DNA of 64,000 bases from Clostridiales bacterium (GTDB lineage: Bacteria > Bacillota > Clostridia > Saccharofermentanales > Saccharofermentanaceae): positions 15,052 to 79,051 of the forward strand of contig JAGCXQ010000062.1 in NCBI GenBank assembly GCA_017961235.1, in the 5' to 3' direction. A model generated the notes under the pieces. That model did not search any database, was not told the origin of the DNA, and saw nothing but the letters and a program-made list of their open reading frames with translations. Each line of letters starts with the position of its first letter. Position 1 is the stretch's first letter. The translations under genes and the position numbers were made by a program. Below, piece by piece: positions 3,328 to 62,749 of this stretch.

Positions 3328-4876
3328 GCCGCGGCTGAATTCTGACTCTCACGATCGTTTCTCACTTCTTCTCATTGCCCTGACCTCGATCCTTCTGACG
3401 TCCTTCGTCTGCCCGTATGCGCCCTGGTTCCGCTACTGTTTTGAAACAGATGAGACCGTGTACCGTCTTGTTTCTCTCGGCTGGATCCGCGGAAAACTCC
3501 CCTACCGTGACCTTTTCGATCACAAAGGACCTCTCTCCTACGTTTTCTACTCGCTGGGTCTTCTGATCTCCGGCGGAAAGAACTGGGGTATGTGGCTCGT
3601 TTTCTGCATCGTTAACGCGCTCACGTTCACCACGATGTACAGAGTCTTCCGACTGAGATACGACGAGGATTTCTCCATCGTTTCGACCGCACTTCTGATG
3701 TTCCTCCTGACCTTCTTCAAGGATTCTCTCTTCGGCTCCTCCTCGCGTCCGGAAAACATCATCTGCATGTTCCTGATGATCTCCGCGTATCCCTTTGTAA
3801 AAGCACTCATCCGCTTCGATGATCTTCTTCTCGACGAGCAGAAGGAAACTCCTGTCTTTACGATAAAGGAGATGCTGGTCATCGGGCTATGCTGCGGATG
3901 CGTCTTTCTCATCAAGTTCAATATCTGTGTCTTTTATCTGTGCTTCATCGGATCCTATTTCATCTGGCTGATGATCCGAGGCCGCTGGCGCGAGTTCTTT
4001 TCACGAGTAGGCATCTTCCTCGCGGGACTTGTTTCCATCACCGCGGTCTTCTGCATCTACTACTATGTCAGAGGCGGTCTGTCCGACATGATCGGCACGT
4101 ATTTCCTGTTCAATATCCGTTCCGGATGGACAGGGCACTGGCGTCTTCACATCTTCCAGCCGCCGATCCCGGTCACGACTCAGGCCGTCACGATCCTTCT
4201 TATCATCTGCGCGGTGATCGTTATGCGTTTTTCCTCGCAGAAGAATCCGGGACTCAAGCTTCAGAACACTGTCTATCTCATTCTCGGCGCGGTGATCTAT
4301 TTCTTCATCACACTTCCTGAGATCTACTACTACTCATTTATCGTTATTCTCCCGATCTACATGGTCGGCATCTCTCTTCCCGCCGAGCTGATCACGATAC
4401 GCGAGAAGTTTTCTCTTTCCAGACCGAAGATCTGTGCGATGTTTCTCGTACCGGTATTGATCTCATTTCTGATCAACTTTATCGCTATGCCTTCTGTACC
4501 GGCCAAACCTACCGAATTCGAACAGAAAATGGAAGTTTACGCAGAGGCACATCCGGATGCGACATATCTGTTCTTTATGAGCAACACATTTGCGTCTCCG
4601 ATGTTCTACGATATGACCACGGAAGTTCCTTCTTTCCGCTACTTCTATATCCCGGCACGCGCCACGGACGAGATGGAGACCGAACAGCTCCGTACGATCG
4701 CCAGAGGCGAGCCGGATGTCATCGTGATCGAAAATCCTCAGGACCAGGATCCCCGCGTCATGCAGAGCTTCTATAGCTTCTTCGAGAAGTACGGATACAG
4801 CGTCTACTGTGAAGGGGACGGATATAAATACGACACCAGTTATCTGATCTACGCTAAAAGAGAGACTGTCAGCTGA
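3320..4876 (+). CDS. Paralogous GT-C-fold membrane glycosyltransferase-like protein
   Basis: ATG 3320 follows AAGGAGAAG and overlaps the upstream stop by 8 nt. It carries the same loop motif (YRDLFDHKGPLSYVFY), is polytopic and has a soluble C-terminal domain. Confidence 0.6.
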   Translation: MDKPRLNSDSHDRFSLLLIALTSILLTSFVCPYAPWFRYCFETDETVYRLVSLGWIRGKLPYRDLFDHKGPLSYVFYSLGLLISGGKNWGMWLVFCIVNALTFTTMYRVFRLRYDEDFSIVSTALLMFLLTFFKDSLFGSSSRPENIICMFLMISAYPFVKALIRFDDLLLDEQKETPVFTIKEMLVIGLCCGCVFLIKFNICVFYLCFIGSYFIWLMIRGRWREFFSRVGIFLAGLVSITAVFCIYYYVRGGLSDMIGTYFLFNIRSGWTGHWRLHIFQPPIPVTTQAVTILLIICAVIVMRFSSQKNPGLKLQNTVYLILGAVIYFFITLPEIYYYSFIVILPIYMVGISLPAELITIREKFSLSRPKICAMFLVPVLISFLINFIAMPSVPAKPTEFEQKMEVYAEAHPDATYLFFMSNTFASPMFYDMTTEVPSFRYFYIPARATDEMETEQLRTIARGEPDVIVIENPQDQDPRVMQSFYSFFEKYGYSVYCEGDGYKYDTSYLIYAKRETVS

Positions 4877-5867
4877 TCGTATCGAGCCATCTCACAAATT
4901 CCTGGAACAGCTTCACGCTTCCCCAGCAGTCTTTGATATCCCGGCCATATAGTTCTGACGCATCATTCGCATAGTATGTCTCCGTAAACTCTTCCCCGCC
5001 GATCGAGAACCGGAACGAGGCGTGATCCAGGTTTTGGGTCAGCGCAATCATCTGGTAGGCTGCTTTCTTCATCTCGGAACGATAGTATTTTTCAAGTTTA
5101 CTATCCAGCGGCTCGCTGAAGATAATTGTCCATCCGTAGGGTTCTTTTTCCGTCTCCAGTTCATTGGTAAAAGCACCGATCTTATCACGGAGTCCCAAAG
5201 CCGAAGCAGTCCGGGAATTGGCCGACATATCTCCTACATACATATGTTTGGTGCCCCAGATCTGCCAAGTCTGATCGAGGATCGTTTCTCCGTCCTCCCA
5301 GACGATCGTTCTCTCTTCATCGACGAAGATCATGGCCAGCGGCGCATCATACGAATATGTGATTGTTTCCGTCTTCATTCCCTGATGAAGAGGGCTCTTC
5401 TTCACGATCCGGCTGGTGATCCAGATATCGCCGTCCTCACTCTCCTCAAACTTGATGTCCGAAATCGCTTCCTTATCATCAACAGGAATTGCGGTAACAT
5501 GCACGTTCTTCCCGTCGACTTCTATATTGTACGTGACCTTCCCGGAATCACCCTTTTCTCCGATCATGTATGTTCTCGTCACGAGTACGCCAAGTATCAG
5601 AGCCACCACAGCCAGTACCACAGACAAAGCAATGACTCTCACTCGGGAACGGTACTTCTTCATAAAGTCGATGTGCTTTTTCTCCTCTGCCGCTTCAGAC
5701 GGCGAAAGTGCTCCACCCTCTTCTTTTTTCATGGTTTCATAAACACTTTGACAGGCAGGGCAGTGTAAAACGTGTGCTTCGACCTCGCCATTCGTTACAT
5801 CAGAAGTTAATTTGTCGATATAAAGCGGTAGAAGATCCTGTACGATCTCACAAGGCAGTTTTGTCAT
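4869..5867 (-). CDS. Anti-sigma factor (zf-HC2 N-terminus, one TM, DUF4825-like extracytoplasmic domain)
   Basis: The N-terminus EAHVLHCPACQSVYETM is an H-x3-C-x2-C zinc motif. One TM segment (VIALSVVLAVVALILGVLV). ATGA overlap with the upstream ECF sigma gene. Confidence 0.75.
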   Translation of the reverse strand: MTKLPCEIVQDLLPLYIDKLTSDVTNGEVEAHVLHCPACQSVYETMKKEEGGALSPSEAAEEKKHIDFMKKYRSRVRVIALSVVLAVVALILGVLVTRTYMIGEKGDSGKVTYNIEVDGKNVHVTAIPVDDKEAISDIKFEESEDGDIWITSRIVKKSPLHQGMKTETITYSYDAPLAMIFVDEERTIVWEDGETILDQTWQIWGTKHMYVGDMSANSRTASALGLRDKIGAFTNELETEKEPYGWTIIFSEPLDSKLEKYYRSEMKKAAYQMIALTQNLDHASFRFSIGGEEFTETYYANDASELYGRDIKDCWGSVKLFQEFVRWLDTIS

Positions 5868-6337
5868 TTTTCCAACTCCTTCCTCAGCTTTTCTTTTCCG
5901 CGATAGTATGTCACCCTGGCCCAGTTTTCAGTCTTTTCGTGTATCGTTCCGATCTCACGGAATGAAAGATTTCCGAAGATGCGCAGATACATCACTTCCC
6001 GGTAGGGTTCCGTTAATGAGTGCAGTTTCTTGAGGAGCTCGACCCGTTCGGCCGATTCGACAAGTTCTTTTTCCGCAGACTGCACGGGAATGGCCAGATC
6101 ATCGATATCCTCGTGCGGCGGATGCTTCCGTCTATAGGTAAGAAGTACATTCTTCGCAATACCGCAAAGCCACGTCGAGATCCTGCACTTGCCATCGAAC
6201 CGGTCAATCGTCCGGATCGCCTGATAAAAGGTCTCCTGTGTCAGTTCTTCTGCCAGGTCGGCCTGATAGGTCAGTGACAGCAGATACTTGTACACCGTCT
6301 TCGCGTGCTGCTGGTAGATTTCATCAAAAGACTGCAA
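5864..6337 (-). CDS. ECF-type RNA polymerase sigma-70 family factor
   Basis: 157 aa. Region 2 (YKYLLSLTYQADLAEELTQETFYQA) and region 4 (PYREVMYLRIFGNLSFREIGTIHEKTENWARVTYYRGKEKL) are present. TTG start after AAGGAGGTGA. Confidence 0.85.
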   Translation of the reverse strand: MQSFDEIYQQHAKTVYKYLLSLTYQADLAEELTQETFYQAIRTIDRFDGKCRISTWLCGIAKNVLLTYRRKHPPHEDIDDLAIPVQSAEKELVESAERVELLKKLHSLTEPYREVMYLRIFGNLSFREIGTIHEKTENWARVTYYRGKEKLRKELEK

Positions 6338-50702: not shown

Positions 50703-52106
50703 TTAAACAGTAATATCTTCGACTCGGACATTCGTAATATGGATCGTTGCCGTATCTTTATACTTACCCATATTGAACTCGAGACGTCCGTTGTTATCGT
50801 CCTTCTCATTCATGGCAAACTCATATTCAAAGGTCTGCCACTCGGTCGTCAGCCGGATCGATGTATCCGGGAAATAACGGATCCACCCTGCATTCGGCGC
50901 CGATACACACACGATGCACTTGCGGTCCTCATCCGCGCGGATATCAAAGGTGAGCTTATACTTGTGTCCTTTTCTCATCGGAAGATCCGGATGGACAAGC
51001 TGGACAGAATACTCCTCCGTACCACAGTTTGTCGAGGATATGATCATCTCTCCGTTCTCGATCTTCGCCGCTCCTTCGCCGCCATTAAACAGCAGGAACT
51101 TCCAGTCGATGTCATCTTCGAGATTCTCCGCTTCCGCGAAATTACCGTTTCTGATGAAGTTTCCGTCCGGAAGCGCTTCACGGAAGGGCTTTTCCGGCTT
51201 CTTGACATTCGTGTCGTACGAAGGCTTCTGATATACACGGACATAATCGATCAGGAACTCCGCCTTACTGAAATCCGTGCTCGCGTCCGGATTTCCCGGC
51301 CAGTTTCCTCCGACCGCCAGATTCATCTGCAGATAGAACGGCTGGTCAAATGGCGCCGGATACGGCTTATCCTCTTCTCCCTCAACAGCGGTGAACCAGT
51401 CGTTCACCTTGAGCACGAGTTCCCCGTCTGTGTAGAAACGCATCTCGCCCGGCTCCCACTCGACAGAATACTCATGGAATTTCGCGGAGAAGCTGTCTGC
51501 TCCCTTCTTCTCGATCGTGCCCTGCTGCTCGGCATGCGGCTCGCCATAGTGGATCGTGGAATAAGAGATCGAGGTATCGTTTCCCAGAGACTCCATGATA
51601 TCGATCTCACCGCACTTCGGCCACTGACCGTAGTGGGATTCGTCCTTCGGCATCATCCAGATCGCCGGCCACAGTCCCTGTCCTTCCGGGACCTTGGCGG
51701 ATACGACTACTTTTCCATATTGAAAATCACTCTTATTCTGTCCTTTGATCTTACCGGACGTATAGTAATCCTTTCCGTCCTTTTGTGTCTTAATGGCCTT
51801 TAGAACGAGATTTCCATCCCGCACGAAAACATTGTCGGTGGATGTCGTATATTCCTGCAGCTCGTTATTCGTCCAGCCCGGTTCATGCGGATCGTAGCTC
51901 CACTTGCTCTCATCCATCTTCTCCCCGTCAAACTCATCGTTCCACAGAAGATCATAGCCATCGATCTTCGGAACTTCAGACTTTACTTCAGAAGCCTGTG
52001 TATCCGAAGAAGATTCGTTTCCATCTTTTTTCTTATTTGAGCACGATGTCAATGGCAGTACCATCAGCGCCGCCAGAACGATACTCAAAAGTTTTGCTTT
52101 CTTCAT
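50703..52106 (-). CDS. Lipoprotein glycoside hydrolase family 16 (beta-1,3(4)-glucanase) with C-terminal CBM4_9-like module
   Basis: Lipobox LTSC. GH16 catalytic motif GEIDIMESLG. The C-terminal roughly 150 aa (GNFAEAENLEDDIDWKF...YSVQLVHPDLPMRKGHKYKLTFDIRA...ITNVRVEDI) has the CBM4_9 pattern. Confidence 0.85.
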   Translation of the reverse strand: MKKAKLLSIVLAALMVLPLTSCSNKKKDGNESSSDTQASEVKSEVPKIDGYDLLWNDEFDGEKMDESKWSYDPHEPGWTNNELQEYTTSTDNVFVRDGNLVLKAIKTQKDGKDYYTSGKIKGQNKSDFQYGKVVVSAKVPEGQGLWPAIWMMPKDESHYGQWPKCGEIDIMESLGNDTSISYSTIHYGEPHAEQQGTIEKKGADSFSAKFHEYSVEWEPGEMRFYTDGELVLKVNDWFTAVEGEEDKPYPAPFDQPFYLQMNLAVGGNWPGNPDASTDFSKAEFLIDYVRVYQKPSYDTNVKKPEKPFREALPDGNFIRNGNFAEAENLEDDIDWKFLLFNGGEGAAKIENGEMIISSTNCGTEEYSVQLVHPDLPMRKGHKYKLTFDIRADEDRKCIVCVSAPNAGWIRYFPDTSIRLTTEWQTFEYEFAMNEKDDNNGRLEFNMGKYKDTATIHITNVRVEDITV

Positions 52107-52210: not shown

Positions 52211-52276
52211 ACCACTTAAAAAGCACTTGGCATTTGCGTTTTTTTGATGAATGAAGAAATCATGGGAGAAAGCCGT

Positions 52277-53032
52277 ATGGGTACGAAAAGAAAGAAGATC
52301 TCATATCAGGAGTTTCTGCACAGGGAGTATGAGTTTTTCCATGCTCCGCTAGCCCCCGAGATGGACTTCTACGAGACGATACGCGCCGGAGACATGAAGA
52401 AACTTGAGACGCTGCTAACAGAACCCTTTCATGAAAAGAAGGGACTCGGTGTGCTCTCAAGTGATCCTCTGTCCAATCTGAAATACCATCTGACGATCAC
52501 GATCGCTCTAGTTGCCCGCTTCTGCATCTCCGGCGGATTAAGCCAGGCTGAATCCTATAGTCTCAGCGATTACTATATCCGAATGACAGACGAGGCTCAG
52601 TCTCCGCAGGAGATCTCCGATATTCATAACGAGATGTGTATTCACTATACCAGACGCATGATCGACCTTCAGAGGAATTCGGTCACTTCGAAGTCCGTAA
52701 GTACCTGCATCAACTATATCTATGAGCACCTGCATACGCGCATCACACTGCAGACGCTTGCCAGGACATGCAGTCTCTCCGCGCCCTATCTGTCCCGTTT
52801 ATTCAAAAAAGAAACAGGGTTTTCGATAAGCGAGTATGTATTAAGAAAAAAACTCGAGACGGCCAAATCGATGCTCTCTTCCTCGGACTATTCCATTGCC
52901 GAGATTTCCGCATCGCTCGCCTTCCCGAGCCAGAGCTACTTTACGAATCTTCTGAAAAAGGATACCGGTCTTACTCCGAAGCAGTACCGCGACAGAAATA
53001 ACGGATCGATCCCGAAAGACATACGCCGCTGA
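52277..53032 (+). CDS. AraC-family transcriptional regulator (paralog of 590-1465)
   Basis: ATG 52277 follows GGGAGAAAG. It aligns residue for residue with the first AraC (..NLKYHLTITIALVARFCISGGLSQAESYSLSDYYI.. vs ..NVRYHLIISIAMIARYCINYGMDVETSYSLSDIYI..). C-terminal double HTH. Confidence 0.85.
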   Translation: MGTKRKKISYQEFLHREYEFFHAPLAPEMDFYETIRAGDMKKLETLLTEPFHEKKGLGVLSSDPLSNLKYHLTITIALVARFCISGGLSQAESYSLSDYYIRMTDEAQSPQEISDIHNEMCIHYTRRMIDLQRNSVTSKSVSTCINYIYEHLHTRITLQTLARTCSLSAPYLSRLFKKETGFSISEYVLRKKLETAKSMLSSSDYSIAEISASLAFPSQSYFTNLLKKDTGLTPKQYRDRNNGSIPKDIRR

Positions 53033-53036
53033 TAAC

Positions 53037-53531
53037 TCAGATATTTGTATCTTCTACACCAGTCGGATCCCCGTGATGTTTTGTCGGCTTCTTTGTCGGA
53101 TCTGTTGTTTTGCCGGGATCCTTTGTCTCTTTTCCTCCGGGAGCTTTCGTTTCCCTGATATCGTCTTTGCCTTTGGAAGATCCATCAGAAAGAGTATTCG
53201 CCGGATCTCCACCGATATCTATATCCAGCTCGTCAGGAGCGCCCGGATCACTTCCCGGTGCCTTGGTAGTTACGGAAGTGGATCCCGTTCCGCTTTCGGA
53301 AAGATCTGACGCCGGATCTTCTGTCCCGGAATTCTTCGATGTATCAGAAGAGTCTTCAGCGGAAGATATTGCTGAATCGTGAGAGGACATTTCACTTTCT
53401 GCTGTGATCTTTGTGTCAGAAGCATTATCCGAAGAGGAGGATGCCCCCTTTTTCTTCTTTCCTTTCCAGCAGGCAGATAACAGCATCGTGCCGGCAACTA
53501 AAAGAATCAGAACTCTTTTCCTTCTGATCAT
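53037..53531 (-). CDS. Lipid-anchored, intrinsically disordered Ser/Thr/Asp/Gly/Lys-rich protein
   Basis: Signal peptide with lipobox LLSAC. The rest is low complexity. The C-terminus DPGKTTDPTKKPTKHHGDPTGVEDTNI is homologous to the C-terminus of 56663-57196. ATGA overlap with the thioesterase gene. Confidence 0.6.
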   Translation of the reverse strand: MIRRKRVLILLVAGTMLLSACWKGKKKKGASSSSDNASDTKITAESEMSSHDSAISSAEDSSDTSKNSGTEDPASDLSESGTGSTSVTTKAPGSDPGAPDELDIDIGGDPANTLSDGSSKGKDDIRETKAPGGKETKDPGKTTDPTKKPTKHHGDPTGVEDTNI

Positions 53532-53959
53532 GTCTGTTCTCCTTTATCCATCAGAGATATAAGTGTCTCATAAAATGCGGGGCATTCCTTTTCCAGACGG
53601 ATCGGGCGGCCTTCCAGGTTCAGGAAGCAGTGCTCGGATCTCGCGTCGCAGACAAGTTTGCCATCGGCATTTTTCATCTCATATCCGATCGTCAGCCGGA
53701 CACCCTTACAGGCAAGGATCTTCACTTCGATCGTGATCTCTTCCGGAAATGTCGTTGTCCCTTTGTAGTGCACATCGATCGAGACGACCGGAGAGGCAAT
53801 TCCTGTCTCCTCCAGTTTATCGAAATCCCATCCGATCTTGGAAAGATAGTCGACTCTGGCTTCTTCCATCCAGCGCACATAGTTCGAGTGATGCGTGATA
53901 CTCATTTTATCCGTTTCATAGTACTGGACCTTGTGCTTATATGGTTCGATATTCTGCAT
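53528..53959 (-). CDS. Acyl-CoA thioesterase (4HBT/YbgC-like hotdog fold)
   Basis: 143 aa. HKVQYYETDKMSITHHSNYVRWMEEARVDYL is the typical 4HBT N-terminus with the catalytic Asp. Confidence 0.85.
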   Translation of the reverse strand: MQNIEPYKHKVQYYETDKMSITHHSNYVRWMEEARVDYLSKIGWDFDKLEETGIASPVVSIDVHYKGTTTFPEEITIEVKILACKGVRLTIGYEMKNADGKLVCDARSEHCFLNLEGRPIRLEKECPAFYETLISLMDKGEQT

Positions 53960-54033: not shown

Positions 54034-54071
54034 ATAAAAAAGACCGGATGCCAGTTTCCCGGCACCCGGTC
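54034..54071 (-). terminator. Rho-independent terminator after small ORF P1
   Basis: Minus strand reads GACCGGGUGCC..GGCAUCCGGUC followed by UUUUUU. Confidence 0.75.
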
Positions 54072-54091
54072 TAGATCTTTAGAAAACAGAA

Positions 54092-54184
54092 TTACACATC
54101 CACTTCATCGCCAAAGCTTGTGATGATCACATCTTCCGCATCAAAGGTTACAATTACCAGCTTTAATTCTTCATAGGTTTCCAT
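54092..54184 (-). CDS. Small acidic ORF P1 (30 aa), not in ORF track
   Basis: Translation METYEELKLVIVTFDAEDVIITSFGDEVDV. AGGAG lies 11 nt upstream. It sits 42 nt after the stop of the large gene and just before a terminator, and shares a core with P2 (57231-57353). Confidence 0.45.
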   Translation of the reverse strand: METYEELKLVIVTFDAEDVIITSFGDEVDV

Positions 54185-54226: not shown

Positions 54227-56527
54227 TTACTGTTTATTAAAGTAATTATCTGCAGCTTCGCCGAAACAGTACAGAGCTTTGCCGAGATATCTACCGTGTT
54301 CAGACTCCGCAAACTGGGATGCCAGCAGAGCATATGACATCGAGCTGGCCTTTACCGTAAAGCTTTCATCCGTGTTATTTCTCGTCACGGTAAAAGTATG
54401 TGGTACGACCAGATCTTGGGCAATGATATTCTTCACATAGAGTGCATACTTACCCTTACCGATCTTGACCGCCTCTGCCGGCTGACCATCTACAGTAAAG
54501 CTGTAATCACTGATCGGATGTGTATCATCGATCTTAAACGTCAGTCTCAGAGTATTGATGTACTGGAAATCTACATTCAGAGAGGCACCAAGACATCCCT
54601 CGACCTGATTCTCGGTTTTTACTACACCGTATTTATCAATTTTATCCTGCGAATACTCAAAATTATAAATTCCCGGATACCTTCCGAATTCAGTACCGTC
54701 ATCATAGACAAAGAACCTGGTAACAGCCTCGCAGTAACCCTGTAAGTATGCTGCCAGAAGCGTCATCTCATCATAGGGATCAGAGGGATCATAAGCAGAG
54801 ATAACATTTCGGATATACATCGCGACAGAATACCAGCACTCATTATCATCATATGCTGAAGTACCATTCGGGTGCACCAGCAGAACCGGTTCATCATTCT
54901 CATCCACCACTTTGACCGCAATATACTTCCTGTAGTTATAAAGATCTACAGGAACACGGAAATAGAGATTATCCCCCTCCACTGCATCCGGAGAGGAGAT
55001 CGGTGTTTCTTTTATGATCTTACCTGTGTCTGTATCCGTAAATACGACCTTCACATTCTGGCTATTCTCTTTGAGATAATCAGAGAATTCGATGCGGAAC
55101 TGCAACTCGATACCTGCTCCGAATACTACATCACCTGCACAGATCGTCGCTTTGCCGACAGGCTCCCATGCAGCAATTATATAAACTCTACCATCATGTA
55201 CCGGCTCAGAAAAATCGAATCGGCCGATCCTTTCTTTCGTATGGGTATCCGGATCGTAACTATACTCATCCCATCCCAGGAAGATATAGCCTTCCCGAAC
55301 CGGATCTGCAGGACGTGCGATCCTATCTCCCGTAGGAATCAGCAGCTCGGCATCTGTACTACTGAAACCATCACTGATCAGGACATACGTCAACAGCGCT
55401 TTGCAGTAATCACAGTGAGAATCTCCGTCCTCATCTTTATGTTCTTCACACGGAACGAGTTTCAGCCACTTATAATTCACGATATCATCATAATCCGTGC
55501 AAAGAGTCACACCGGTGGCACTTGCTCCGTAACCGTTCGTCACGTATGCTCTGTGCTTCTCCGGCAAACCATATCCGCACGAATATGTCGCTTGGTTGTC
55601 GTCCATATCCGCCTGCATCAATGCTTTGGCATCAACAGAATCCTGGCCTGCCTGCGCGAATACCGTTCCGCCACTGATATCGATCAACACTGTATTAAGG
55701 TGTCTTGATTCGGAAAGCATTCCGCTTCCGATACCGGGACCTCCATCTCCACCGGTAGCAGTAACCTCCCCTCCGAGGATCTGAACCATATTGCAAAGGC
55801 CGCCTCTTCCGCCGCCGATTCCTGCAGCGTAGCTGGCTCCGGTAGCCGTAACTGTTCCTCCGGAGATTCTTACTCCACATGCATTACTGCCATTACCTCC
55901 GCCGATTCCGGCTCCGCCGGCATCTCTAGAATAGGAACTACCAGAAACAGTACCACCTTTAATAATGACAGCATCCGGCTGTTGAGAAGGATCTACATTG
56001 GCACCTGTGCCGATACCTGCACCACCGTTTCCTTTGGCTGTAATGGAGTCTCCGCCACAAATAGTAATAGCACCATTTGCTTGTCCTGCGTCTCCGCCAA
56101 TACCTGCATTTCCCTGACCGACATCATCTATGATCAGGATGATGCCTATCGTGTTAAAAATATCCGAGCCCCTGTATATCGTCAAAGAATTACCTTTATT
56201 GACCGATATACCCTTAAGTGGCTGCAGCGGCATAGTATTTGTCAGAACAAGTTTTACGTCGCCTTCCACCACGATACGGTCGGATATCTTCAGATATTCA
56301 GTATTATCTGCCACATACCATCCGCGGGTAGCACCGGTATCCGTCAATTTCGTAGATTCTTCGGTAATCACTTCGCATGTTCTGGTCTCCGCGGTACCAG
56401 ATCTGCCTTCATGGAAGAAATTAACATTTTTCGTTTGAGATGAAGGATCAGCAAAAACCGAAGCCGGTATGATCCCGATCACTAAAGCAATGCACACAAG
56501 AAGTGCAATGAAACTCTTTTTCCTCAT
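54227..56527 (-). CDS. Secreted Gly-rich beta-helix repeat protein 1 (with Listeria-Bacteroides-type repeat and conserved C-terminal domain)
   Basis: ATG 56527 follows TAGGAGG. Signal peptide ..IGIIPASVFA/D. Repeats NAGIGGDAG, GGAGIGTG, GGAGIGGGNG, AAGIGGGRGG and GGPGIGSG interleaved with GGTVTA-type strands. CEEHKDEDGDSHCDYCKA knuckle. REGYIFLGWDEY (Flg_new-like). No LPXTG or SLH anchor. Confidence 0.8.
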   Translation of the reverse strand: MRKKSFIALLVCIALVIGIIPASVFADPSSQTKNVNFFHEGRSGTAETRTCEVITEESTKLTDTGATRGWYVADNTEYLKISDRIVVEGDVKLVLTNTMPLQPLKGISVNKGNSLTIYRGSDIFNTIGIILIIDDVGQGNAGIGGDAGQANGAITICGGDSITAKGNGGAGIGTGANVDPSQQPDAVIIKGGTVSGSSYSRDAGGAGIGGGNGSNACGVRISGGTVTATGASYAAGIGGGRGGLCNMVQILGGEVTATGGDGGPGIGSGMLSESRHLNTVLIDISGGTVFAQAGQDSVDAKALMQADMDDNQATYSCGYGLPEKHRAYVTNGYGASATGVTLCTDYDDIVNYKWLKLVPCEEHKDEDGDSHCDYCKALLTYVLISDGFSSTDAELLIPTGDRIARPADPVREGYIFLGWDEYSYDPDTHTKERIGRFDFSEPVHDGRVYIIAAWEPVGKATICAGDVVFGAGIELQFRIEFSDYLKENSQNVKVVFTDTDTGKIIKETPISSPDAVEGDNLYFRVPVDLYNYRKYIAVKVVDENDEPVLLVHPNGTSAYDDNECWYSVAMYIRNVISAYDPSDPYDEMTLLAAYLQGYCEAVTRFFVYDDGTEFGRYPGIYNFEYSQDKIDKYGVVKTENQVEGCLGASLNVDFQYINTLRLTFKIDDTHPISDYSFTVDGQPAEAVKIGKGKYALYVKNIIAQDLVVPHTFTVTRNNTDESFTVKASSMSYALLASQFAESEHGRYLGKALYCFGEAADNYFNKQ

Positions 56528-56603
56528 CTTCAGAAACCTCCTAAACCCCCAAGGATACAATTATTCATAATGCTATTTTAATGTATCCTCAGATCAAAGT
56601 CCA
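56528..56603 (-). promoter_or_regulatory. Conserved upstream module of beta-helix gene 1 (TGGACTTT-N19-ATAGCATTATGA, then TTAGGAGGTTTC RBS)
   Basis: Both motifs, the 19-nt spacing and the distance to the ATG (37 vs 38 nt) match the module at 59561-59637. Confidence 0.45.
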
Positions 56604-56641: not shown

Positions 56642-56678
56642 CAAAAAAAAAGATACAGGCTGTCAGAAACCTGTATCT
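56642..56678 (-). terminator. Rho-independent terminator ending module 2
   Basis: AGATACAGG (56651-56659) pairs with CCTGTATCT (56670-56678), followed by a run of 9 U on the minus strand. The stop codon of 56663-57196 lies in the loop. Confidence 0.8.
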
Positions 56679-57196
56679 TCTTCTCCTGCCATATCACCGG
56701 TATAAAGAGTCTGTTTTTTCGTTTCGTCCGGATGGTTCTCTGATGGTTTCGTCGGATCCGTTTTTCCCGGGGTCTTATCTGTACTCGAACCGGGGCCCGG
56801 ACGGCTTTCTTTTCCGGGCTCTGTGTTCGACGGCTGCCCATCATCAATCACATATTCTCCCGGCTCCGTTTCTTTGTCAGCGGACGTTTTTCCATCTGTA
56901 GAGGTCCCTTCCTGCTGCTGATCCGAAACAGAAATGTCTTGGGATACATCCGTCTCCATAGAGGTTTCAGTTGAAGGAAAAACTGTACCGCTTTGTTGTC
57001 CGGCATCATTGTTCTGTCCTTCAATCTTCTTCGGATCATCATTCAAGTTAAGCTCAGCTGTACCCCCGGAAATGACTTGTGATGTCTGAACCACATCTGT
57101 GTTCTTTTTTCCTGCTTTTCTTATCCACAAATAGCATAGAACCGAAACCAGGATAAGCAGACATACCGAAACTGCGATAATGACTTTTTTCTTCAT
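56663..57196 (-). CDS. Single-pass membrane-anchored, intrinsically disordered protein
   Basis: ATG 57196 follows GGAGAA. MKKKVIIAVSVCLLILVSVLCYLWIRKAGKK, then a low-complexity S/T/D/G/P/Q region. The C-terminus TPGKTDPTKPSENHPDETKKQTLYTGDMAGEEDTGF parallels 53037-53531. Confidence 0.6.
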   Translation of the reverse strand: MKKKVIIAVSVCLLILVSVLCYLWIRKAGKKNTDVVQTSQVISGGTAELNLNDDPKKIEGQNNDAGQQSGTVFPSTETSMETDVSQDISVSDQQQEGTSTDGKTSADKETEPGEYVIDDGQPSNTEPGKESRPGPGSSTDKTPGKTDPTKPSENHPDETKKQTLYTGDMAGEEDTGF

Positions 57197-57230
57197 CCGC
57201 TTCTCCATATTAGATATCTGCTAGCATCTG

Positions 57231-57353
57231 TCAGATACCATGTTCGTTTCCGCCATTGCCATGACCAGGATCATCATCATACGAGTCCGTAATGATATCC
57301 ATATTCTCAAAAATGATCAATTCAATTTTTAAAGGCTGATATTCGTTTTTCAT
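57231..57353 (-). CDS. Small acidic ORF P2 (40 aa), not in ORF track
   Basis: Translation MKNEYQPLKIELIIFENMDIITDSYDDDPGHGNGGNEHGI. Its ATG overlaps the TGA of the upstream large gene (CAATGAAA), which implies translational coupling. The core is shared with P1. Confidence 0.5.
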   Translation of the reverse strand: MKNEYQPLKIELIIFENMDIITDSYDDDPGHGNGGNEHGI

Positions 57354-59560
57354 TGACTTGCTCCATCTCTCTTTTCAAAATATGCAATTGCATTTTTATT
57401 GTAGTAGTACATGCCTTTACCAAGCGCCATGTAGTAATCATCCCCGGTCTTTATGGATGTATATCCATAAGAAAGGCCGCTGGCTTTGATCGTGTATTCC
57501 TCTCCGCCTTTCTTCGCTATAGTGAAATTATACACATACGACAGATTCACGGCAGAAATATTACCTACTTCGATTGCATAGCCTCCTGTTGTGGTTTTGA
57601 TCGCTCTGACTTTTTGTCCGTCAAGTTTGAATTCATAATCACCCGGATTCACACCCTCTTTAAAATAGAAAGTAACGCGCAGTGTATGAACATCTTCAAA
57701 ATACATACGAAGAGTGATCCTGCTTATATCCTCCGGACGCGTTCCTTCAAATACAGGAGCATATGGATCCAGATCCGAATCGCCGATTCCTTCTCCCACG
57801 GTCAACTGAGCATACTGCGAATATTCATAACCATATATCACATCATGTGCCGTCATTGAGTAGAGGCTAAATGCGTGAGCAAGATTCTTCATTTCGATCG
57901 TCTTATATGTAAAATTATAGACGTTGCCTGCATATCTTGCCGGACTATATTCGAAACCGGAATTCGTATAATCCACATCATTCCCGGAGTGTAAAGATAC
58001 TTTATTGCCCTGTCCATCGTAAACATTCATGACAGTGACTATGGCAGCATCTGTGATATTAAACGGATAGAGGATCTGAGTATTGTAGGGATATACCGGT
58101 AGAGAACCTTCTCCTACAGTGGTCCCGTCTTTAATATATACCTTTAAGAGTTCAACTCCGGTATTCTTCGATACAAATGATACATAAGCTCCTTCATCAT
58201 CGAGCAGTCTCTTCGAGAAAGAGAACGTGTAACGAAGAGAAAGTTTTCCCTCGAAAATCACTGTCGCCGATCGCAGGATCGCATCTGCACCATATCCGCA
58301 TTCTTTACATACATTCTTTCCGGATTCGTAGGAATGATTTTCCCAGACAAATTCAGTACGGCATTCCGGACAAGATCTAAGATGCTGCTGGGAAGTGCAC
58401 TCAAAAGTGGAATTCGTATGCTTGCATACATTCATCGAGACATACGGTTGATCAAGACATTCCCTTACGTCTTTTGTAAAATGCTGCCCGACAATACCGT
58501 TGTCTTCTTCGTGGACCTGGATCGAAACACCCGGATCGATTGAAATTGAACTATCTGAGATCTTAGATGAATCATCCGAAGCACTGCATATCAGCGAGCT
58601 ACCCAACACGGATACTGCTGTGATTTGAGCTCCACGGATCGATATACGGCATTTTGAGTAATCCGGATTCGGGCATCCATATCCATTTCCAATAGCAGCA
58701 CCTTTCGCTTCAGCTTCATTATTACCGGGAGGAGCAATTGCTGTGACAGAACCTCCGGAAATGGAAATAACACCACACTGTCCGCCGGCACCGCCACCGA
58801 TAGCTGCAGCATCCAATCCGGACGGATATGCACCAATAGTATTACAATCGATCATGTATATATCCGGGGAATCCGCATGGAAGCCACCACCGATACTTGC
58901 GGCACTATAGCCACCGATACATGTAAAACCTGAACGACAGAGAATAATAGAACCTGCTCCCGATGCAGAAAGATATGGATCTGATTCACTTACTGCTGCT
59001 TCATTTCCACAGCCGCCGGTTCCAATCGCTGGAGCGCCATATCCACCATAAACAGTTCCGGAAACACCAACAATCGTAATAGGACCATTCACTTCACCCT
59101 GATTGCCGCCGATTCCCGCACACTGGTTCGGAATCGGATTCCATGCACCAAAACTCGGAGTACTTGAACAATTATTGAATATCGAGGAATATACTTTCAA
59201 GGAACTTGTACTCGGAACATAAAAACCTCCAGTAGCAGCTAGAGTAGATGCCCCATATATTTCAGTATCATCGGAAAACGAATTGACAAACTCATCCAGA
59301 ATGATCGTGACATCACCTTTGATAGTCATTCGCTGGTTGTAATGAATATAACCACGAGCAACATAGGTTCCTTCGGTAAACTCTGTTTCCTTACCCGTAA
59401 GGAACGTATAATCGGTTGTATGCTTCGTAGAACCATTTTCATTTACGTAGGAAATTTCCGGCATCGCCACATCAGCCATAACTGACATAGGAATGATACC
59501 GCACATCAGCGCAACACTGATCAGCAATGCGCAAATCTTTCTGAAGCTTTTCTTTTGCAT
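57350..59560 (-). CDS. Secreted Gly-rich beta-helix repeat protein 2 (paralog of 54227-56527)
   Basis: ATG 59560 follows TTAGGAGGG. The track's longer start would run through the fprA terminator. Signal peptide ..CGIIPMSVMA/D. CAGIGGNQG, APAIGTGG, AASIGGGF, AAAIGGGAGG and GAAIGNGYG repeats. Cys knuckles CPECRTEF..CKECG. The C-terminal domain is homologous to protein 1. Confidence 0.8.
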   Translation of the reverse strand: MQKKSFRKICALLISVALMCGIIPMSVMADVAMPEISYVNENGSTKHTTDYTFLTGKETEFTEGTYVARGYIHYNQRMTIKGDVTIILDEFVNSFSDDTEIYGASTLAATGGFYVPSTSSLKVYSSIFNNCSSTPSFGAWNPIPNQCAGIGGNQGEVNGPITIVGVSGTVYGGYGAPAIGTGGCGNEAAVSESDPYLSASGAGSIILCRSGFTCIGGYSAASIGGGFHADSPDIYMIDCNTIGAYPSGLDAAAIGGGAGGQCGVISISGGSVTAIAPPGNNEAEAKGAAIGNGYGCPNPDYSKCRISIRGAQITAVSVLGSSLICSASDDSSKISDSSISIDPGVSIQVHEEDNGIVGQHFTKDVRECLDQPYVSMNVCKHTNSTFECTSQQHLRSCPECRTEFVWENHSYESGKNVCKECGYGADAILRSATVIFEGKLSLRYTFSFSKRLLDDEGAYVSFVSKNTGVELLKVYIKDGTTVGEGSLPVYPYNTQILYPFNITDAAIVTVMNVYDGQGNKVSLHSGNDVDYTNSGFEYSPARYAGNVYNFTYKTIEMKNLAHAFSLYSMTAHDVIYGYEYSQYAQLTVGEGIGDSDLDPYAPVFEGTRPEDISRITLRMYFEDVHTLRVTFYFKEGVNPGDYEFKLDGQKVRAIKTTTGGYAIEVGNISAVNLSYVYNFTIAKKGGEEYTIKASGLSYGYTSIKTGDDYYMALGKGMYYYNKNAIAYFEKRDGASQ

Positions 59561-59728: not shown

Positions 59729-61522
59729 TCACCCGATCGGCTCGAAGTCGGCAGCGCCGTGCTTACAGAGCGGGCATACGATGTCATCCGGGAGTTCATC
59801 TCCTTCATAGACATATCCGCAGACCTTGCAGACATAGCCCTTCTTCCCTTCCGTCTCCGGCTTCGGCTTGACGTTCTTCTGGTAGTAAGTGTATGTCATG
59901 GTCTCCTTATCGCTTAAGACACGAGCCTCCGTCACCGAGCAGATGAACATGCCGTGGGTGTCAAGATCAACATAATCTTCGACCTTGAGGGACATGAAGG
60001 AGTTGATATACTTCGGCAGGAACACCAGCCCGTTATCCGCGCGGAGGATATTCTCGCAGTCCGCAAACTTATCGACATTTCTTCCGCTCTGGAAACCGAA
60101 GTTCTCGAACACCTTAAACGGAGCTTCGACAGACAGGCAGTTTACATTCATGACACCGGTCTGCTTAATGACATGATGCGAGTAGTTCTGCTTGTTGATC
60201 GTAACCGCAATACGGTTCGGTGTATTCGTCACCTGAGTAACGGTATTTACGATAAGGCCGTTGTCTTTCTTGCCGTCATTGGAGGTAACGACATAAAGGC
60301 CATAACCGATGTTAAAGAGAGCAGTCAGATCGTTCTTATTCGCAGTATCTTCCTTCTGCGCGAGATAGTCCTGGCAGAGTTCTTTTGCCAGAGCATCGAC
60401 CTGGGCCTTCGACTCATCATTTAATGCCGACATGATCTTGACGTTATTCTCTGTGTAGGTGATGTTCTTGCTCTTTTCGAGCATCGCCTTCATGGTGCGG
60501 ATCGCCTGCGGCGCCCAGGAACCGTTCTCGATCATGGCGACGGTCTTGTTCTGGAACTGGCGCTCGGTCAGGTGATGGATGAATTCTCTCATGAACGGGA
60601 ATACATCCGCGTTATAGGTCGTGGTCGCAAGTACGATACGTCCATAACGGAAAGCATCCTCGACGCACTCGGCCATGTCTTCTCTTGCCAGGTCATTCAC
60701 AACGACCTTCGGGCATCCGTTCTCCTTGAGCTTATTGGCCAGAAGCTCGACTGCTGCCTTGGTGTGGCCATAGACGGATGTGTAGAAGATCGCGATGCCG
60801 TCTGTCTCCACACCATAAGAAGACCATGTGTCATAGAGCTTGAGATACGGGGAAAGATCTCCGGTCAGGACAGGTCCGTGCAGCGGGCAGATCGTCTTGA
60901 TCTCAAGTCCTGCCGCCTTCTTCAGAACAGTCTGTACCTGCGCGCCGTATTTTCCGACGATGCCGATATAGTAGCGGCGGGCTTCACATGCCCAGTCCTC
61001 TTCGACATCGAGCGCGCCGAATTTACCAAATCCGTCCGCACTGAAAAGCACTTTATCAAAAGTATCGTACGTCATGAGCACTTCCGGCCAGTGTACCATC
61101 GGTGCACCGACAAACTTCAGGACGTGCTTGCCGAGCGGAAGCTCATCGCCCTCGCCAACAACGATGCGGCGGTCTTCGAACTCCGTACCGAAGAAATTCT
61201 TCATCATCGTGAATGCCTTCTGGGAAGACACGATCTCCGCATTCGGATAGTTCTTCATGAAGTTCACGATATTCGCGGAGTGATCCGGCTCCATATGCTG
61301 GACCACGAGGTAATCCGGAGCCTTACCGGCCAGTGCTTTTTCCAGATTATCGAGCCACTCATGAGTGAAATTCTTATCAACGGTATCCATAACTGCGACC
61401 TTATAATCCGAGATCACATACGAGTTATACGCCATACCGTTCGGCACCACATACTGGCCCTCGAAAAGGTCGATATTATGGTCATTTACGCCTACATACT
61501 TAATGTCATTACTGATAAACAT
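59729..61522 (-). CDS. Multidomain flavodiiron protein: metallo-beta-lactamase-like diiron + flavodoxin + flavin-reductase-like + rubredoxin
   Basis: H-x-E-x-D-H (QHMEPDHS) diiron motif. Flavodoxin-like IAIFYTSVYGHTK. Flavin_Reduct-like segment LYVVTSNDGKKDNGLIVNTVTQV. C-terminal [20 protein letters not shown] rubredoxin. Confidence 0.9.
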   Translation of the reverse strand: MFISNDIKYVGVNDHNIDLFEGQYVVPNGMAYNSYVISDYKVAVMDTVDKNFTHEWLDNLEKALAGKAPDYLVVQHMEPDHSANIVNFMKNYPNAEIVSSQKAFTMMKNFFGTEFEDRRIVVGEGDELPLGKHVLKFVGAPMVHWPEVLMTYDTFDKVLFSADGFGKFGALDVEEDWACEARRYYIGIVGKYGAQVQTVLKKAAGLEIKTICPLHGPVLTGDLSPYLKLYDTWSSYGVETDGIAIFYTSVYGHTKAAVELLANKLKENGCPKVVVNDLAREDMAECVEDAFRYGRIVLATTTYNADVFPFMREFIHHLTERQFQNKTVAMIENGSWAPQAIRTMKAMLEKSKNITYTENNVKIMSALNDESKAQVDALAKELCQDYLAQKEDTANKNDLTALFNIGYGLYVVTSNDGKKDNGLIVNTVTQVTNTPNRIAVTINKQNYSHHVIKQTGVMNVNCLSVEAPFKVFENFGFQSGRNVDKFADCENILRADNGLVFLPKYINSFMSLKVEDYVDLDTHGMFICSVTEARVLSDKETMTYTYYQKNVKPKPETEGKKGYVCKVCGYVYEGDELPDDIVCPLCKHGAADFEPIG

Positions 61523-61544
61523 AAGTGCTTCCCTTTCTTAACTA

Positions 61545-61580
61545 AAGAACGGGCGTCCGCATCTCTTCTGCGGACGCCCC
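61545..61580 (-). terminator. Hairpin between rubrerythrin and flavodiiron genes (partial terminator or attenuator)
   Basis: GGGCGTCCGCA (61551-61561) pairs with TGCGGACGCCC (69-79 of the same 61500 block), followed by GUUCUUUAGUU. The U-tract is weak. Confidence 0.5.
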
Positions 61581-61625
61581 TCATGCTTCTTTCTAGGTAG
61601 CGCCCTCTCCGGCGCCTTCGTAGAA

Positions 61626-62213
61626 TCAACCGAAGTATCTGTCGAGAAGGCCCTTCAGTGCTTTTCCGTGACGAGCCTCATCTCTTGCCATCTCATGAAC
61701 AGTGTCATGGATCGCATCGAGATTATTCTTCTTCGCGCAGGTTGCGAGCTCTGTCTTACCTGCTGTTGCGCCGAACTCGCAGTCCACACGCCACTTGAGG
61801 TTCTCCTTGGTGGATGCCTTCATGTTTGCTTCGAGATCAGATCCGAGAAGTTCAGCAAACTTTGCCGCATGCTCTGCCTCTTCAAATGCAGCCTTCTCCC
61901 AGTAAAGACCGATCTCCGGATAGCCCTCACGGTAAGCGATACGAGCCATGCAGAGATACATGCCGACCTCGGAACACTCACCGGTGAAGTTTGCCTTCAG
62001 CTGGTCGAAGATGTACTTCTTATCCTCCTCAGAAATATCAGGATTATTCTTCACAGTCTCTGCATATACGCCGAACTTATGCTCAGCAGCGAGACCCATG
62101 TCTTCTTCCATCTTCTTAAATGCAGCCTTCTTTGCCTTACATACCGGGCACTCATCCGGTGCATCAGGTCCTTCATAAACGTAACCACATACAGAACATA
62201 CAAACTTTGTCAT
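61626..62213 (-). CDS. rbr: Reverse rubrerythrin (N-terminal rubredoxin domain + ferritin-like diiron domain)
   Basis: ATG 62213 follows [30 protein letters not shown], then E-x-x-H pairs ([21 protein letters not shown]). Confidence 0.9.
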
Positions 62214-62261
62214 ACTCAATTTCTCCTTGTCTGATTTGATTTGAAAAGCACTCCCCGCGTC

Positions 62262-62660
62262 TTATGCGCCGCGCTCTTCATCTTCTTTACTGCACTCCGG
62301 GCACAGTCCGTCGAACTGGAGCGAATATCCTAAGATCGTATAGCCGGAAGTATCAGAAAGCATATCGGCGAGGTCCTTGACCGGCATCACGACATCCGCG
62401 ACGCGCCCGCATTCACTGCAGTGCACGTGATAGTGCGGGAAGGTCTGGTGGTCGAAGTGATCCGCGCCGTTGTTGATACGGATGCGGAGAGCTTCGCCGG
62501 AATCGGCAAGCTTATTCAGAATACGATAGACAGTCGCACGCGAGATCGACGGATAGGTACTCTGCACTTCCGCAACAACTTCATCGGCGGTAGGGTGATT
62601 GCACATACGGATCAAAGTCTCGTGAACGATTCTTTTCTGAAGCGTATTTCTTTCCTGCAT
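62262..62660 (-). CDS. Fur-family metalloregulator, PerR-like
   Basis: ATG 62660 follows AGGAG. Winged helix QKRIVHETLIRMCNHPTADEV..ISRATVYRILNKL. HFDHQ..HYHVHCSECG...CPEC are Fur/PerR metal sites. The gene heads the rubrerythrin/FDP operon. Confidence 0.85.
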   Translation of the reverse strand: MQERNTLQKRIVHETLIRMCNHPTADEVVAEVQSTYPSISRATVYRILNKLADSGEALRIRINNGADHFDHQTFPHYHVHCSECGRVADVVMPVKDLADMLSDTSGYTILGYSLQFDGLCPECSKEDEERGA

Positions 62661-62749
62661 CCTGAAAACTCCTGACATAACAGCATTTTAGATCTTAGAA
62701 CAGTCACCCTGGACCTCTGAAGATGTGTCCAAGTGCTTTTCTACTATTG

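Follow-up and report, generated by a model that had tools for sequence, protein, structure and literature searches.

A conserved acidic peptide gene coupled to a large secreted protein in a Clostridiales bacterium: a candidate leader-guided, RiPP-like precursor

What is the role of a 40-amino acid (aa) open reading frame (ORF) whose start codon overlaps the stop codon of a large secreted-protein gene? The ORF, here called PEP40, lies in a 64,000-nucleotide (nt) stretch of DNA from a Clostridiales bacterium (the window, i.e. the whole stretch that was analysed), which also holds a paralogous ORF, PEP30. We found that PEP40 is a genuine, conserved small-protein gene. Both peptides are probably (we put it at roughly 0.6) leader-guided, exported precursors that resemble peptides made by the ribosome and modified after translation (RiPPs), related to the lasso class without its cyclase and tied to a surface-protein module. 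The PEP40 gene has these parts:

57231..57353, (-) strand: PEP40, 40-aa peptide gene with an ATG start, translation MKNEYQPLKIELIIFENMDIITDSYDDDPGHGNGGNEHGI
57282-57353, (-) strand: leader-like segment of PEP40, residues 1-24, conserved and terminating at invariant Ser24
57234-57281, (-) strand: acidic tail of PEP40, residues 25-40, 16 residues, YDDDPGHGNGGNEHGI
57361..57364, (-) strand: GGAG Shine-Dalgarno-like site, within the 3' end of the large gene and 7 nt before the PEP40 ATG

The ORF, its sequence and its overlap with the gene at 57350-59560 were all as described in an earlier, sequence-only reading of this DNA: the PEP40 ATG (57353-57351) and the TGA with which the 736-aa gene upstream ends (57352-57350) together form ATGA. 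That reading had also called the peptide strongly negative, free of Cys and without a signal peptide, and we found 9 acidic residues against 2 Lys (net charge about -7), no Cys and no hydrophobic signal peptide. Its 34-nt gap to the next gene, which encodes the stalk protein described below, holds from the ATG at 57196 and becomes 22 nt from the ATG at 57208; gene callers are split between both starts. The PEP40 ORF itself was called independently by several gene callers.

Metagenomic orthologues of PEP40 (73-95% identity) preserve its length and frame and keep the tail motif DPxHGNGGNEH. The dN/dS comparison that the sequence-only reading had named as a check was made by the Nei-Gojobori method: relative to loci L001, L007 and L008 (L numbers are our locus labels), the nonsynonymous divergence (dN) is 0.13-0.17 and synonymous sites (dS) are saturated. 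The ATGA overlap is preserved in L001, L002, L007 and L008. Rfam and tRNA scans of the window gave no match, and a word-indexed homology search returned close relatives only (4-6 proteins). Hence, PEP40 is a genuine, conserved small-protein gene, because its frame and length are kept, dN is low with saturated dS, it has a ribosome-binding site and its ATGA coupling is conserved. The AlphaFold2 model of PEP40 (144 sequences) is an extended chain with no internal secondary structure; its predicted local distance difference test score (pLDDT) averages about 85 over residues 1-20 but only 57-68 in the tail.

The sequence-only reading had noticed the PEP40 core again in the ORF after the paralogous large gene. 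This ORF is PEP30, which lies 3' of the large gene paralogous to PEP40's neighbour:

54092..54184, (-) strand: PEP30, 30-aa paralogous peptide gene, full sequence METYEELKLVIVTFDAEDVIITSFGDEVDV, with leader METYEELKLVIVTFDAEDVIITS followed by tail FGDEVDV
54041..54072, (-) strand: strong intrinsic-terminator-like hairpin, 14-bp stem with 9 GC pairs and a T run

The hairpin stands 20 nt past PEP30 and marks the end of the operon that large protein 1 and PEP30 form. Large proteins 1 and 2 are 25% identical in their C-terminal halves only; the core of PEP40 and PEP30 is nonetheless retained. PEP40 and PEP30 are the sole motif and hidden Markov model (HMM) matches in all six frames of the window, and they match the core HMM with E values of 3.9e-13 and 3.2e-11, respectively. 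Neither peptide has a match in Pfam or NCBIfam. PEP40 has all of the family traits Y5, E11, F15, D19, I21 and S24, and the tail net charges are -4 for PEP40 (YDDDPGHGNGGNEHGI) and -3 for PEP30 (FGDEVDV).

We searched a family profile of six sequences against 1.84 billion representative proteins (E<=1e-3) and found 426 clusters, nearly all of 29-52 aa. Combining the profile matches with 108 peptide genes from genome loci gave 255 distinct peptides. In 254 of these 255, a 20-residue block that runs from Tyr to Ser has the identical spacing Y-x9-F-x8-S, and its consensus is Y(97%)-x3-x-[LMI]-E(90%)-[IV]-[IV]-x-F(98%)-[ED]-x-E-D(99%)-[VI]-I(95%)-T-T-S(99%). The tails that follow have a median of 13 residues (range 4-43), are net negative in 99% and most often begin with Gly. 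The leader-plus-payload architecture is suggested because an invariant N-terminus is joined to hypervariable tails; judged from these sequences, the conserved N-terminal block would behave as a leader and the acidic tail as a variable payload. The suggestion in the sequence-only reading that the peptide might be leaderless therefore does not fit the 24 conserved N-terminal residues.

Genomes, one per species, were scanned with the pattern F[DE][AV]EDVITT and an 11-sequence core alignment as the query, which gave 132 confirmed sites, and 79 loci picked by the peptide motif alone were kept. All 79 are from Bacillota and most from Clostridia (Ruminococcus, Lachnospiraceae, Oscillospiraceae, Faecalibacterium), with Solobacterium also present. 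Some carry peptide genes in tandem: six in L055 (2314-3220), five in L019 (7597-8772) and three in L034 (153-1531). Within these arrays the leaders are near-identical and the tails differ, and genes for HprK-like, S26, NTP_transf_5 or radical S-adenosylmethionine (radical-SAM) proteins adjoin them. Family peptides are annotated at the source only as 'hypothetical protein'. Literature searches returned nothing on the family, the supplementary tables of RiPP genome-mining atlases being outside their reach; the supplements of a paper on rumen lasso peptides (PMC7533575) hold no peptide of the Y-x9-F-x8-S family. Hence, the Y-x9-F-x3-D-x-I-x2-S leader peptides apparently form a large, undescribed family.

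The large proteins of the window, to which both peptide genes are joined, are:

57350..59560, (-) strand: large secreted protein 2, 736 aa from the ATG at 59560, with a beta-rich solenoid and a Cys4 ribbon-like segment between its signal peptide and its C-terminal X domain
57353-58282, (-) strand: X domain of large protein 2, residues 427-736, about 300 aa, C-terminal
54227..56527, (-) strand: large secreted protein 1, 766 aa from the ATG at 56527 (the ORF reaches a TTG at 56560), paralogue of protein 2

The AlphaFold2 model of large protein 2 (pLDDT 80.8) has an all-beta, solenoid-like region at residues 36-320, followed by the Cys4 ribbon-like segment; residues 427-733 form two beta-sandwiches along with long helices. 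As to the 'beta-helix' label given to this protein by the sequence-only reading, Pfam Beta_helix_3 exceeds its cut-off in the paralogue, large protein 1, only. Large protein 1 matches Beta_helix_3 and Listeria-Bacteroides repeats and ends in the same C-terminal X domain. Foldseek with the model of large protein 2 returned only generic tandem immunoglobulin (Ig)-like matches (template-modelling scores of about 0.1-0.3), and a PDB sequence search with both large proteins returned a marginal internalin B repeat and nothing more. There were no cohesin, dockerin, SLH or LPXTG matches in the Pfam and NCBIfam scans. A genome scan with the large protein gave 20 pattern matches, of which none was confirmed.

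A jackhmmer search that took the C-terminal 310 residues of the window's large protein as its seed recovered the X domain from 35 of the 79 loci, where it nearly always forms the very C-terminus of a large secreted protein. The large proteins beside family peptides have 670-2600 aa, lie directly upstream on the same strand and carry Listeria-Bacteroides repeats. Thirty-three peptide genes begin 0-86 nt past an X-domain protein and 15 more follow other proteins of at least 670 aa; adjacency to a large protein thus holds for about 48 of the 108 peptide genes. In the closest relatives of the window, every large gene is paired with a separate peptide gene, either before or after it. Outside the window's clade, X domains are merely 12-30% identical to those of the window. 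In a few large proteins (L039, L043, L049, L051) the X domain is N-terminal or central, e.g. residues 84-316 of about 1000, and in L039 and L049 peptide genes sit between consecutive X-domain genes.

Each copy of the window's module consists of a Sec-secreted large protein, a peptide and a membrane- or lipid-anchored stalk:

56663..57208, (-) strand: stalk protein, 181 aa (177 aa from the alternative start), with a membrane anchor at its N-terminus and the conserved C-terminal motif KKQTLYTGDMAGEEDTGF
53037..53531, (-) strand: second stalk protein, 164 aa, with the lipoprotein signal LLSAC and the C-terminal motif HHGDPTGVEDTNI

The ATG of the second stalk gene overlaps the stop codon of a thioesterase gene, again as ATGA. 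The stalk bodies are disordered and about 87-93% polar (about 87% in the protein at 56663..57208). Their last 16 or so residues are 49% identical, against 28% in the body, and follow the pattern YTG[DN]xxxxED..[FI]. We found that the peptide tail matches the extreme C-terminus of the neighbouring stalk in four independent loci:

L066 (8177-8780): tail DDGLNWSPLTPI, stalk C-terminus DDGLEWSPLTPIN, shared motif DDGL[NE]WSPLTPI
L080 (7714-8276): tail GDYLERD, stalk C-terminus GDYLERDND
L047 (2295-2829), L048 (8001-8538) and L071 (6341-6863): tail PPEGEE[VI].., stalk C-terminus PPEGEEIDPFQ
L038 (7995-8120, 11962-12648): tail ELPFVP, stalk C-terminus ELPFVPAE

Nucleotide differences within the L066, L080 and L038 motifs are almost all synonymous; hence, selection maintains these motifs, which are not recent copies of DNA. 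Tail and stalk from the same locus score at least 30 in 5 of 34 pairs, compared with 0.8% of non-cognate pairs. After de-duplication to 10 loci, three score at least 30, and three were reached in none of 20000 permutations. For the window itself, the PEP40 tail and its stalk C-terminus share Y..D...G.E..G-hydrophobic with a score of 15 (rank 5 of 9), which is not significant, and the window tails searched elsewhere in the window gave chance-level matches only. Endings like ELPF[VI]P recur in other stalks (L051, L061) and peptides (P0027, P0074). In L011 (4402-5202), a run of N in a metagenomic scaffold fuses a stalk to the next peptide in a 266-aa product, which is not a natural fusion.

From these matches it is possible, though we consider it doubtful, that the peptide tail is a soluble copy of the anchored stalk's C-terminal motif, that the X domain docks at this motif and that the exported peptide, freed of its leader, competes for this site or primes it. 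If this is true, the X domain that docks on the stalk would be a previously unrecognised non-covalent system of surface display in Clostridia, and RiPP-type machinery would control the attachment, release or sensing of surface proteins. We know of no precedent for a separate small peptide that copies the C-terminus of an anchor.

Elsewhere in the family, the peptide genes stand with genes of a kind used for peptide maturation and export, here given with the loci that have them:

PqqD-type protein, about 85 aa: about 35 of 79 loci; Pfam PF05402 at 40-57 bits against a cut-off of 23.4
HprK/ScmC-like P-loop protein, about 244 aa: 27 of 79 loci
NTP_transf_5 protein: 28 of 79 loci
S24/S26 signal-peptidase-like protein: 25 of 79 loci, at times fused to NTP_transf_5
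ATP-binding cassette (ABC) exporter: 29 of 79 loci, with a profile that is not specific, as it also matched two unrelated ABC genes of the window
Radical-SAM/SPASM peptide maturase: 15 of 79 loci

This company supports the RiPP-like role that the sequence-only reading had listed among its speculations. All proteins of the set fall below the NCBIfam cut-offs for named systems. Cys is present in the tails of 20 of 28 peptides from radical-SAM loci compared with 1 of 41 from X-domain loci, and this subset of the family fits radical-SAM (sactipeptide or ranthipeptide) chemistry. Mixed operons in L047, L048 and L080 combine, in this order, the X-domain protein, the peptide and a stalk lipoprotein with PqqD, NTP_transf_5, HprK-like and ABC genes. 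A Pfam scan of 128 otherwise unassigned neighbours in the PqqD loci found response regulators, glycosyltransferases and the like. LuxR/GerE-type response regulators occur in 5-7 PqqD loci, which suggests peptide-responsive regulation. A pair of genes for proteins of about 420 aa and about 210 aa lies upstream of the X-domain gene in L047, L048, L071, L077 and L080.

We propose that PEP40 would be made and used as follows. As the sequence shows, it is translated in step with the upstream large secreted protein, by its ATGA overlap and its own GGAG. The lasso-like leader (residues 1-24, Y-x3-x-h-E-h-h-x-F-[ED]-x-x-D-[VI]-I-T-x-S) may then be bound in extended form, as an added beta-strand, by a PqqD-type protein; we infer this binding from the co-occurrence of the genes across the family. 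Proteins of the HprK/ScmC-like and NTP_transf_5 types may tailor the tail; radical-SAM chemistry is not expected on PEP40, since its tail has no Cys. An S24/S26-type peptidase would probably remove the leader after Ser24, and an ABC transporter would export the cleaved peptide. The Thr at -3 and the Ser at -1 before the tail agree with a small-residue rule; type I signal peptidases require small residues at -3 and -1. As the least certain step, the freed 16-residue acidic tail might act outside the cell on the large protein, by way of its Ig-like X domain, and on the stalk; action on either the X domain or the stalk is speculative.

Several observations weigh against this proposal. The PEP40 leader departs twice from the consensus, with Met where 83% of the family have Glu and Asp where 70% have Thr, and the putative cleavage site at Ser24 is placed solely by residue conservation. 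There is no PqqD, HprK-like, NTP_transf_5, S24/S26 or radical-SAM homologue in the 64-kb window, and no maturation gene in the roughly 5 kb past its left end, where FeoB, a peptidyl-prolyl isomerase (Pfam Pro_isomerase) and a pseudouridine synthase are encoded. Maturation genes are likewise missing from the syntenic relatives within 6-10 kb on either side and from about 25 X-domain loci of other genomes within 8 kb on either side. Since these genes are missing near the window and in its relatives, we assume processing in trans, in which case the maturation genes of PEP40's genome would lie outside the window.

Four other explanations were weighed. The peptide could be an unprocessed, dedicated partner of the large protein, a chaperone or a beta-strand donor to its C-terminal domain, as the sequence-only reading had proposed; the tight adjacency and one-to-one pairing in either gene order, the conserved ATGA coupling, a predicted extended peptide that does not fold by itself and a window without maturation genes would all suit such a partner. 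However, the N-terminal segment is equally conserved in loci without a large protein, including the arrays beside radical-SAM and PqqD genes (L019, L055), and a near-invariant strand is unlikely to have co-evolved with a partner as variable as the X domains, at 12-30% identity outside the clade. Moreover, the large proteins have Sec signal peptides, which the peptide lacks; without export of the peptide, they and it would end up in separate compartments. Because the segment is conserved without the large protein and the partner domain is so divergent, a chaperone or strand donor is disfavoured and we regard it as unlikely. That PEP40 is not a functional peptide at all (an RNA element, an ORF that arose by chance or an upstream ORF that regulates the stalk gene) could be argued from its 40 codons, its place 22-34 nt upstream of the next gene and its want of a Pfam or NCBIfam match; this is effectively refuted by the 426 related clusters and the saturated synonymous sites beside conserved amino acids, and with several independent gene-caller predictions and no Rfam match for the window we give it almost no weight.

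The payload could also be reversed, with the conserved 24-mer ending in Ser as the product, the Ser perhaps phosphorylated or glycosylated, and the acidic tail as a disposable follower. An invariant Ser sits exactly at the junction of block and tail, the HprK-like and NTP_transf_5 pair is present in 27-28 loci, and HprK-type kinases and nucleotidyltransferases modify the C-terminal Ser of Firmicutes lasso peptides; for these, phosphorylation of that Ser by HPr-kinase homologues and a part of a nucleotidyltransferase in the glycosylation of pseudomycoidin are summarised in PMC7533575. Yet it is in the tails that Cys is found where radical-SAM/SPASM maturases are present (20 of 28 against 1 of 41), tails such as DPxHGNGGNEH are conserved among orthologues, and in four loci the tail copies the C-terminal motif of the neighbouring protein under selection. 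These three patterns imply a functional tail, and a reversed payload is quite improbable. Much the same small chance attaches to a conventional antimicrobial RiPP or bacteriocin precursor that is near large proteins incidentally. Family gene sets with radical-SAM/SPASM, PqqD, ABC exporters and nearby LuxR-type regulators do resemble typical bacteriocin clusters, whereas the peptide has a strong negative charge, the tails in the window have only 7 and 16 aa and no Cys, no immunity gene or maturase is present in the window, and adjacency to large secreted proteins recurs, as counted above, far too often to be incidental. Hence, we retain the leader-guided, exported RiPP-like precursor as the favoured account of PEP40 and PEP30.

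This account would define a peptide family that is widespread in Clostridia of the gut and rumen (among them Ruminococcus, Lachnospiraceae, Oscillospiraceae and Faecalibacterium), with hundreds of clusters and no Pfam or NCBIfam model. The family appears to employ lasso-type recognition machinery without forming a lasso, and its genes would be tied to large surface proteins instead of antibiotic production, which would link two fields rarely joined, RiPP biosynthesis and the cell-surface architecture of Gram-positive anaerobes. The tails of 7-16 residues could be synthesised as ligands for probing binding by uncharacterised surface proteins with Listeria-Bacteroides repeats or beta-helices.

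The surroundings of the module are partly shared with relatives. A YbgC/4HBT-type acyl-CoA thioesterase gene (53528-53959, (-) strand) separates the PEP30 terminator from the second stalk gene; in L007-L009 the thioesterase is upstream of the entire module. This difference in position indicates that the module has been rearranged around the thioesterase. Directly upstream of the module, and syntenic in all relatives, is an oxidative-stress cluster (59729-62678, (-) strand) with a Fur-family regulator, rubrerythrin and a 597-aa flavodiiron-type protein (ODP, flavodoxin, flavin reductase and rubredoxin-like). The module is flanked by a GH16 glucanase lipoprotein with a CBM4_9 domain (50703-52106, (-) strand) and a divergent AraC-family regulator (52244-53032, (+) strand), whose synteny is kept in L003-L009. 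Farther away, two adjacent genes for PMT_2-type (dolichyl-phosphate-mannose-like) membrane glycosyltransferases (1471-4876, (+) strand; 4869-6337, (-) strand) adjoin a zf-HC2 anti-sigma and extracytoplasmic function (ECF) sigma factor pair (domains from the L092/L093 gene tables).

Several known peptide types were tried for PEP40 and rejected. A double-glycine-leader bacteriocin has no support from NCBIfam or Pfam leader models, and the ABC proteins of the family have only ABC_membrane and ABC_tran domains. A leaderless or cationic class II bacteriocin does not agree with a net charge of about -7, and a sactipeptide or ranthipeptide is not expected of PEP40 or PEP30, which have no Cys and, by tblastn, no radical-SAM homologue in the window; the exclusion of cationic bacteriocin, lanthipeptide and sactipeptide precursors in the sequence-only reading was therefore sound. 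The pattern of a conserved peptide N-terminus with homologous C-termini of the large proteins would be unexpected for a polymorphic-toxin/immunity pair. There is no AgrB neighbour and no Sec signal to suggest an AgrD- or Phr-type pheromone.

The main system for comparison is the lasso peptide of the paeninodin/pseudomycoidin type, with the genes A, B1 (PqqD), B2, C, an ABC transporter (D), an HPr-kinase-like kinase and a nucleotidyltransferase. Firmicutes lasso clusters are surrounded by genes for PqqD, an HPr-kinase homologue, a nucleotidyltransferase and an ABC transporter; HPr-kinase homologues phosphorylate a C-terminal Ser, a nucleotidyltransferase is involved in the glycosylation of pseudomycoidin, and rumen Firmicutes have the lasso leaders MKSWNTPAIEELNINETAG and MKKFEVAELVVLNIADTAF, each followed by G (PMC7533575). 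Like these, the family leader starts with aromatic-x-x-(P/A/L)-x-(L/I/M) and has a Thr near the cleavage site (cf. PMC7533575), the family has a stand-alone PqqD-type protein whose best NCBIfam matches are lasso PqqD chaperones, and its loci include HprK-like, NTP_transf_5 and ABC exporter accessory genes. In contrast, an Asn_synthase cyclase is not recurrent among the 128 scanned neighbours (2 with GATase_6) and none is present in the window, the B2 transglutaminase protease is not a recurrent neighbour and an S24/S26-type peptidase occurs instead, and the family PqqD scores 26-44 bits, below the lasso-specific NCBIfam cut-offs of 70-80 bits. The family leader is similar to the YxxPxL type and about 4 residues longer; the window has Y-Q-P-L. 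With cleavage after Ser24, the window cores would start with Tyr (PEP40) or Phe (PEP30) and not with G, A, S or C as in a lasso core, which has D/E at position 7-9; the 7-residue tail of PEP30 is too short for a lasso; and family genes are coupled to large surface proteins. With no recurrent cyclase or B2 protease and with tail N-termini that are not lasso-compatible, the lasso class was rejected for PEP40.

Other systems share single parts with the family. Like the radical-SAM/SPASM RiPPs (ranthipeptides and sactipeptides; PapB, Clo7bot/TIGR04463), 15 family loci have a maturase and Cys-rich acidic tails, although no maturase of the family reaches any NCBIfam cut-off (124-145 bits, where TIGR04463 requires 525). 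The 244-aa neighbour in family loci is most similar to ScmC (E 4e-8 to 7e-7) of the SynChlorMet cassette (HprK-like ScmC with the radical-SAM/SPASM proteins ScmE/F; TIGR04249-04251), at 29-33 bits against a cut-off of 125, and the cassette differs in taxa, peptide and gene set. In the manner of non-covalent display by cohesin-dockerin pairs or SLH-type anchoring of large Clostridial surface proteins, the window module joins a large secreted multi-domain protein to a membrane- or lipid-anchored disordered protein that has a short conserved C-terminal motif; it differs in having none of their domains nor LPXTG, and binding in it is hypothetical. The trait that RiPP precursors have in general, a conserved leader with a hypervariable core, was found across the family homologues.

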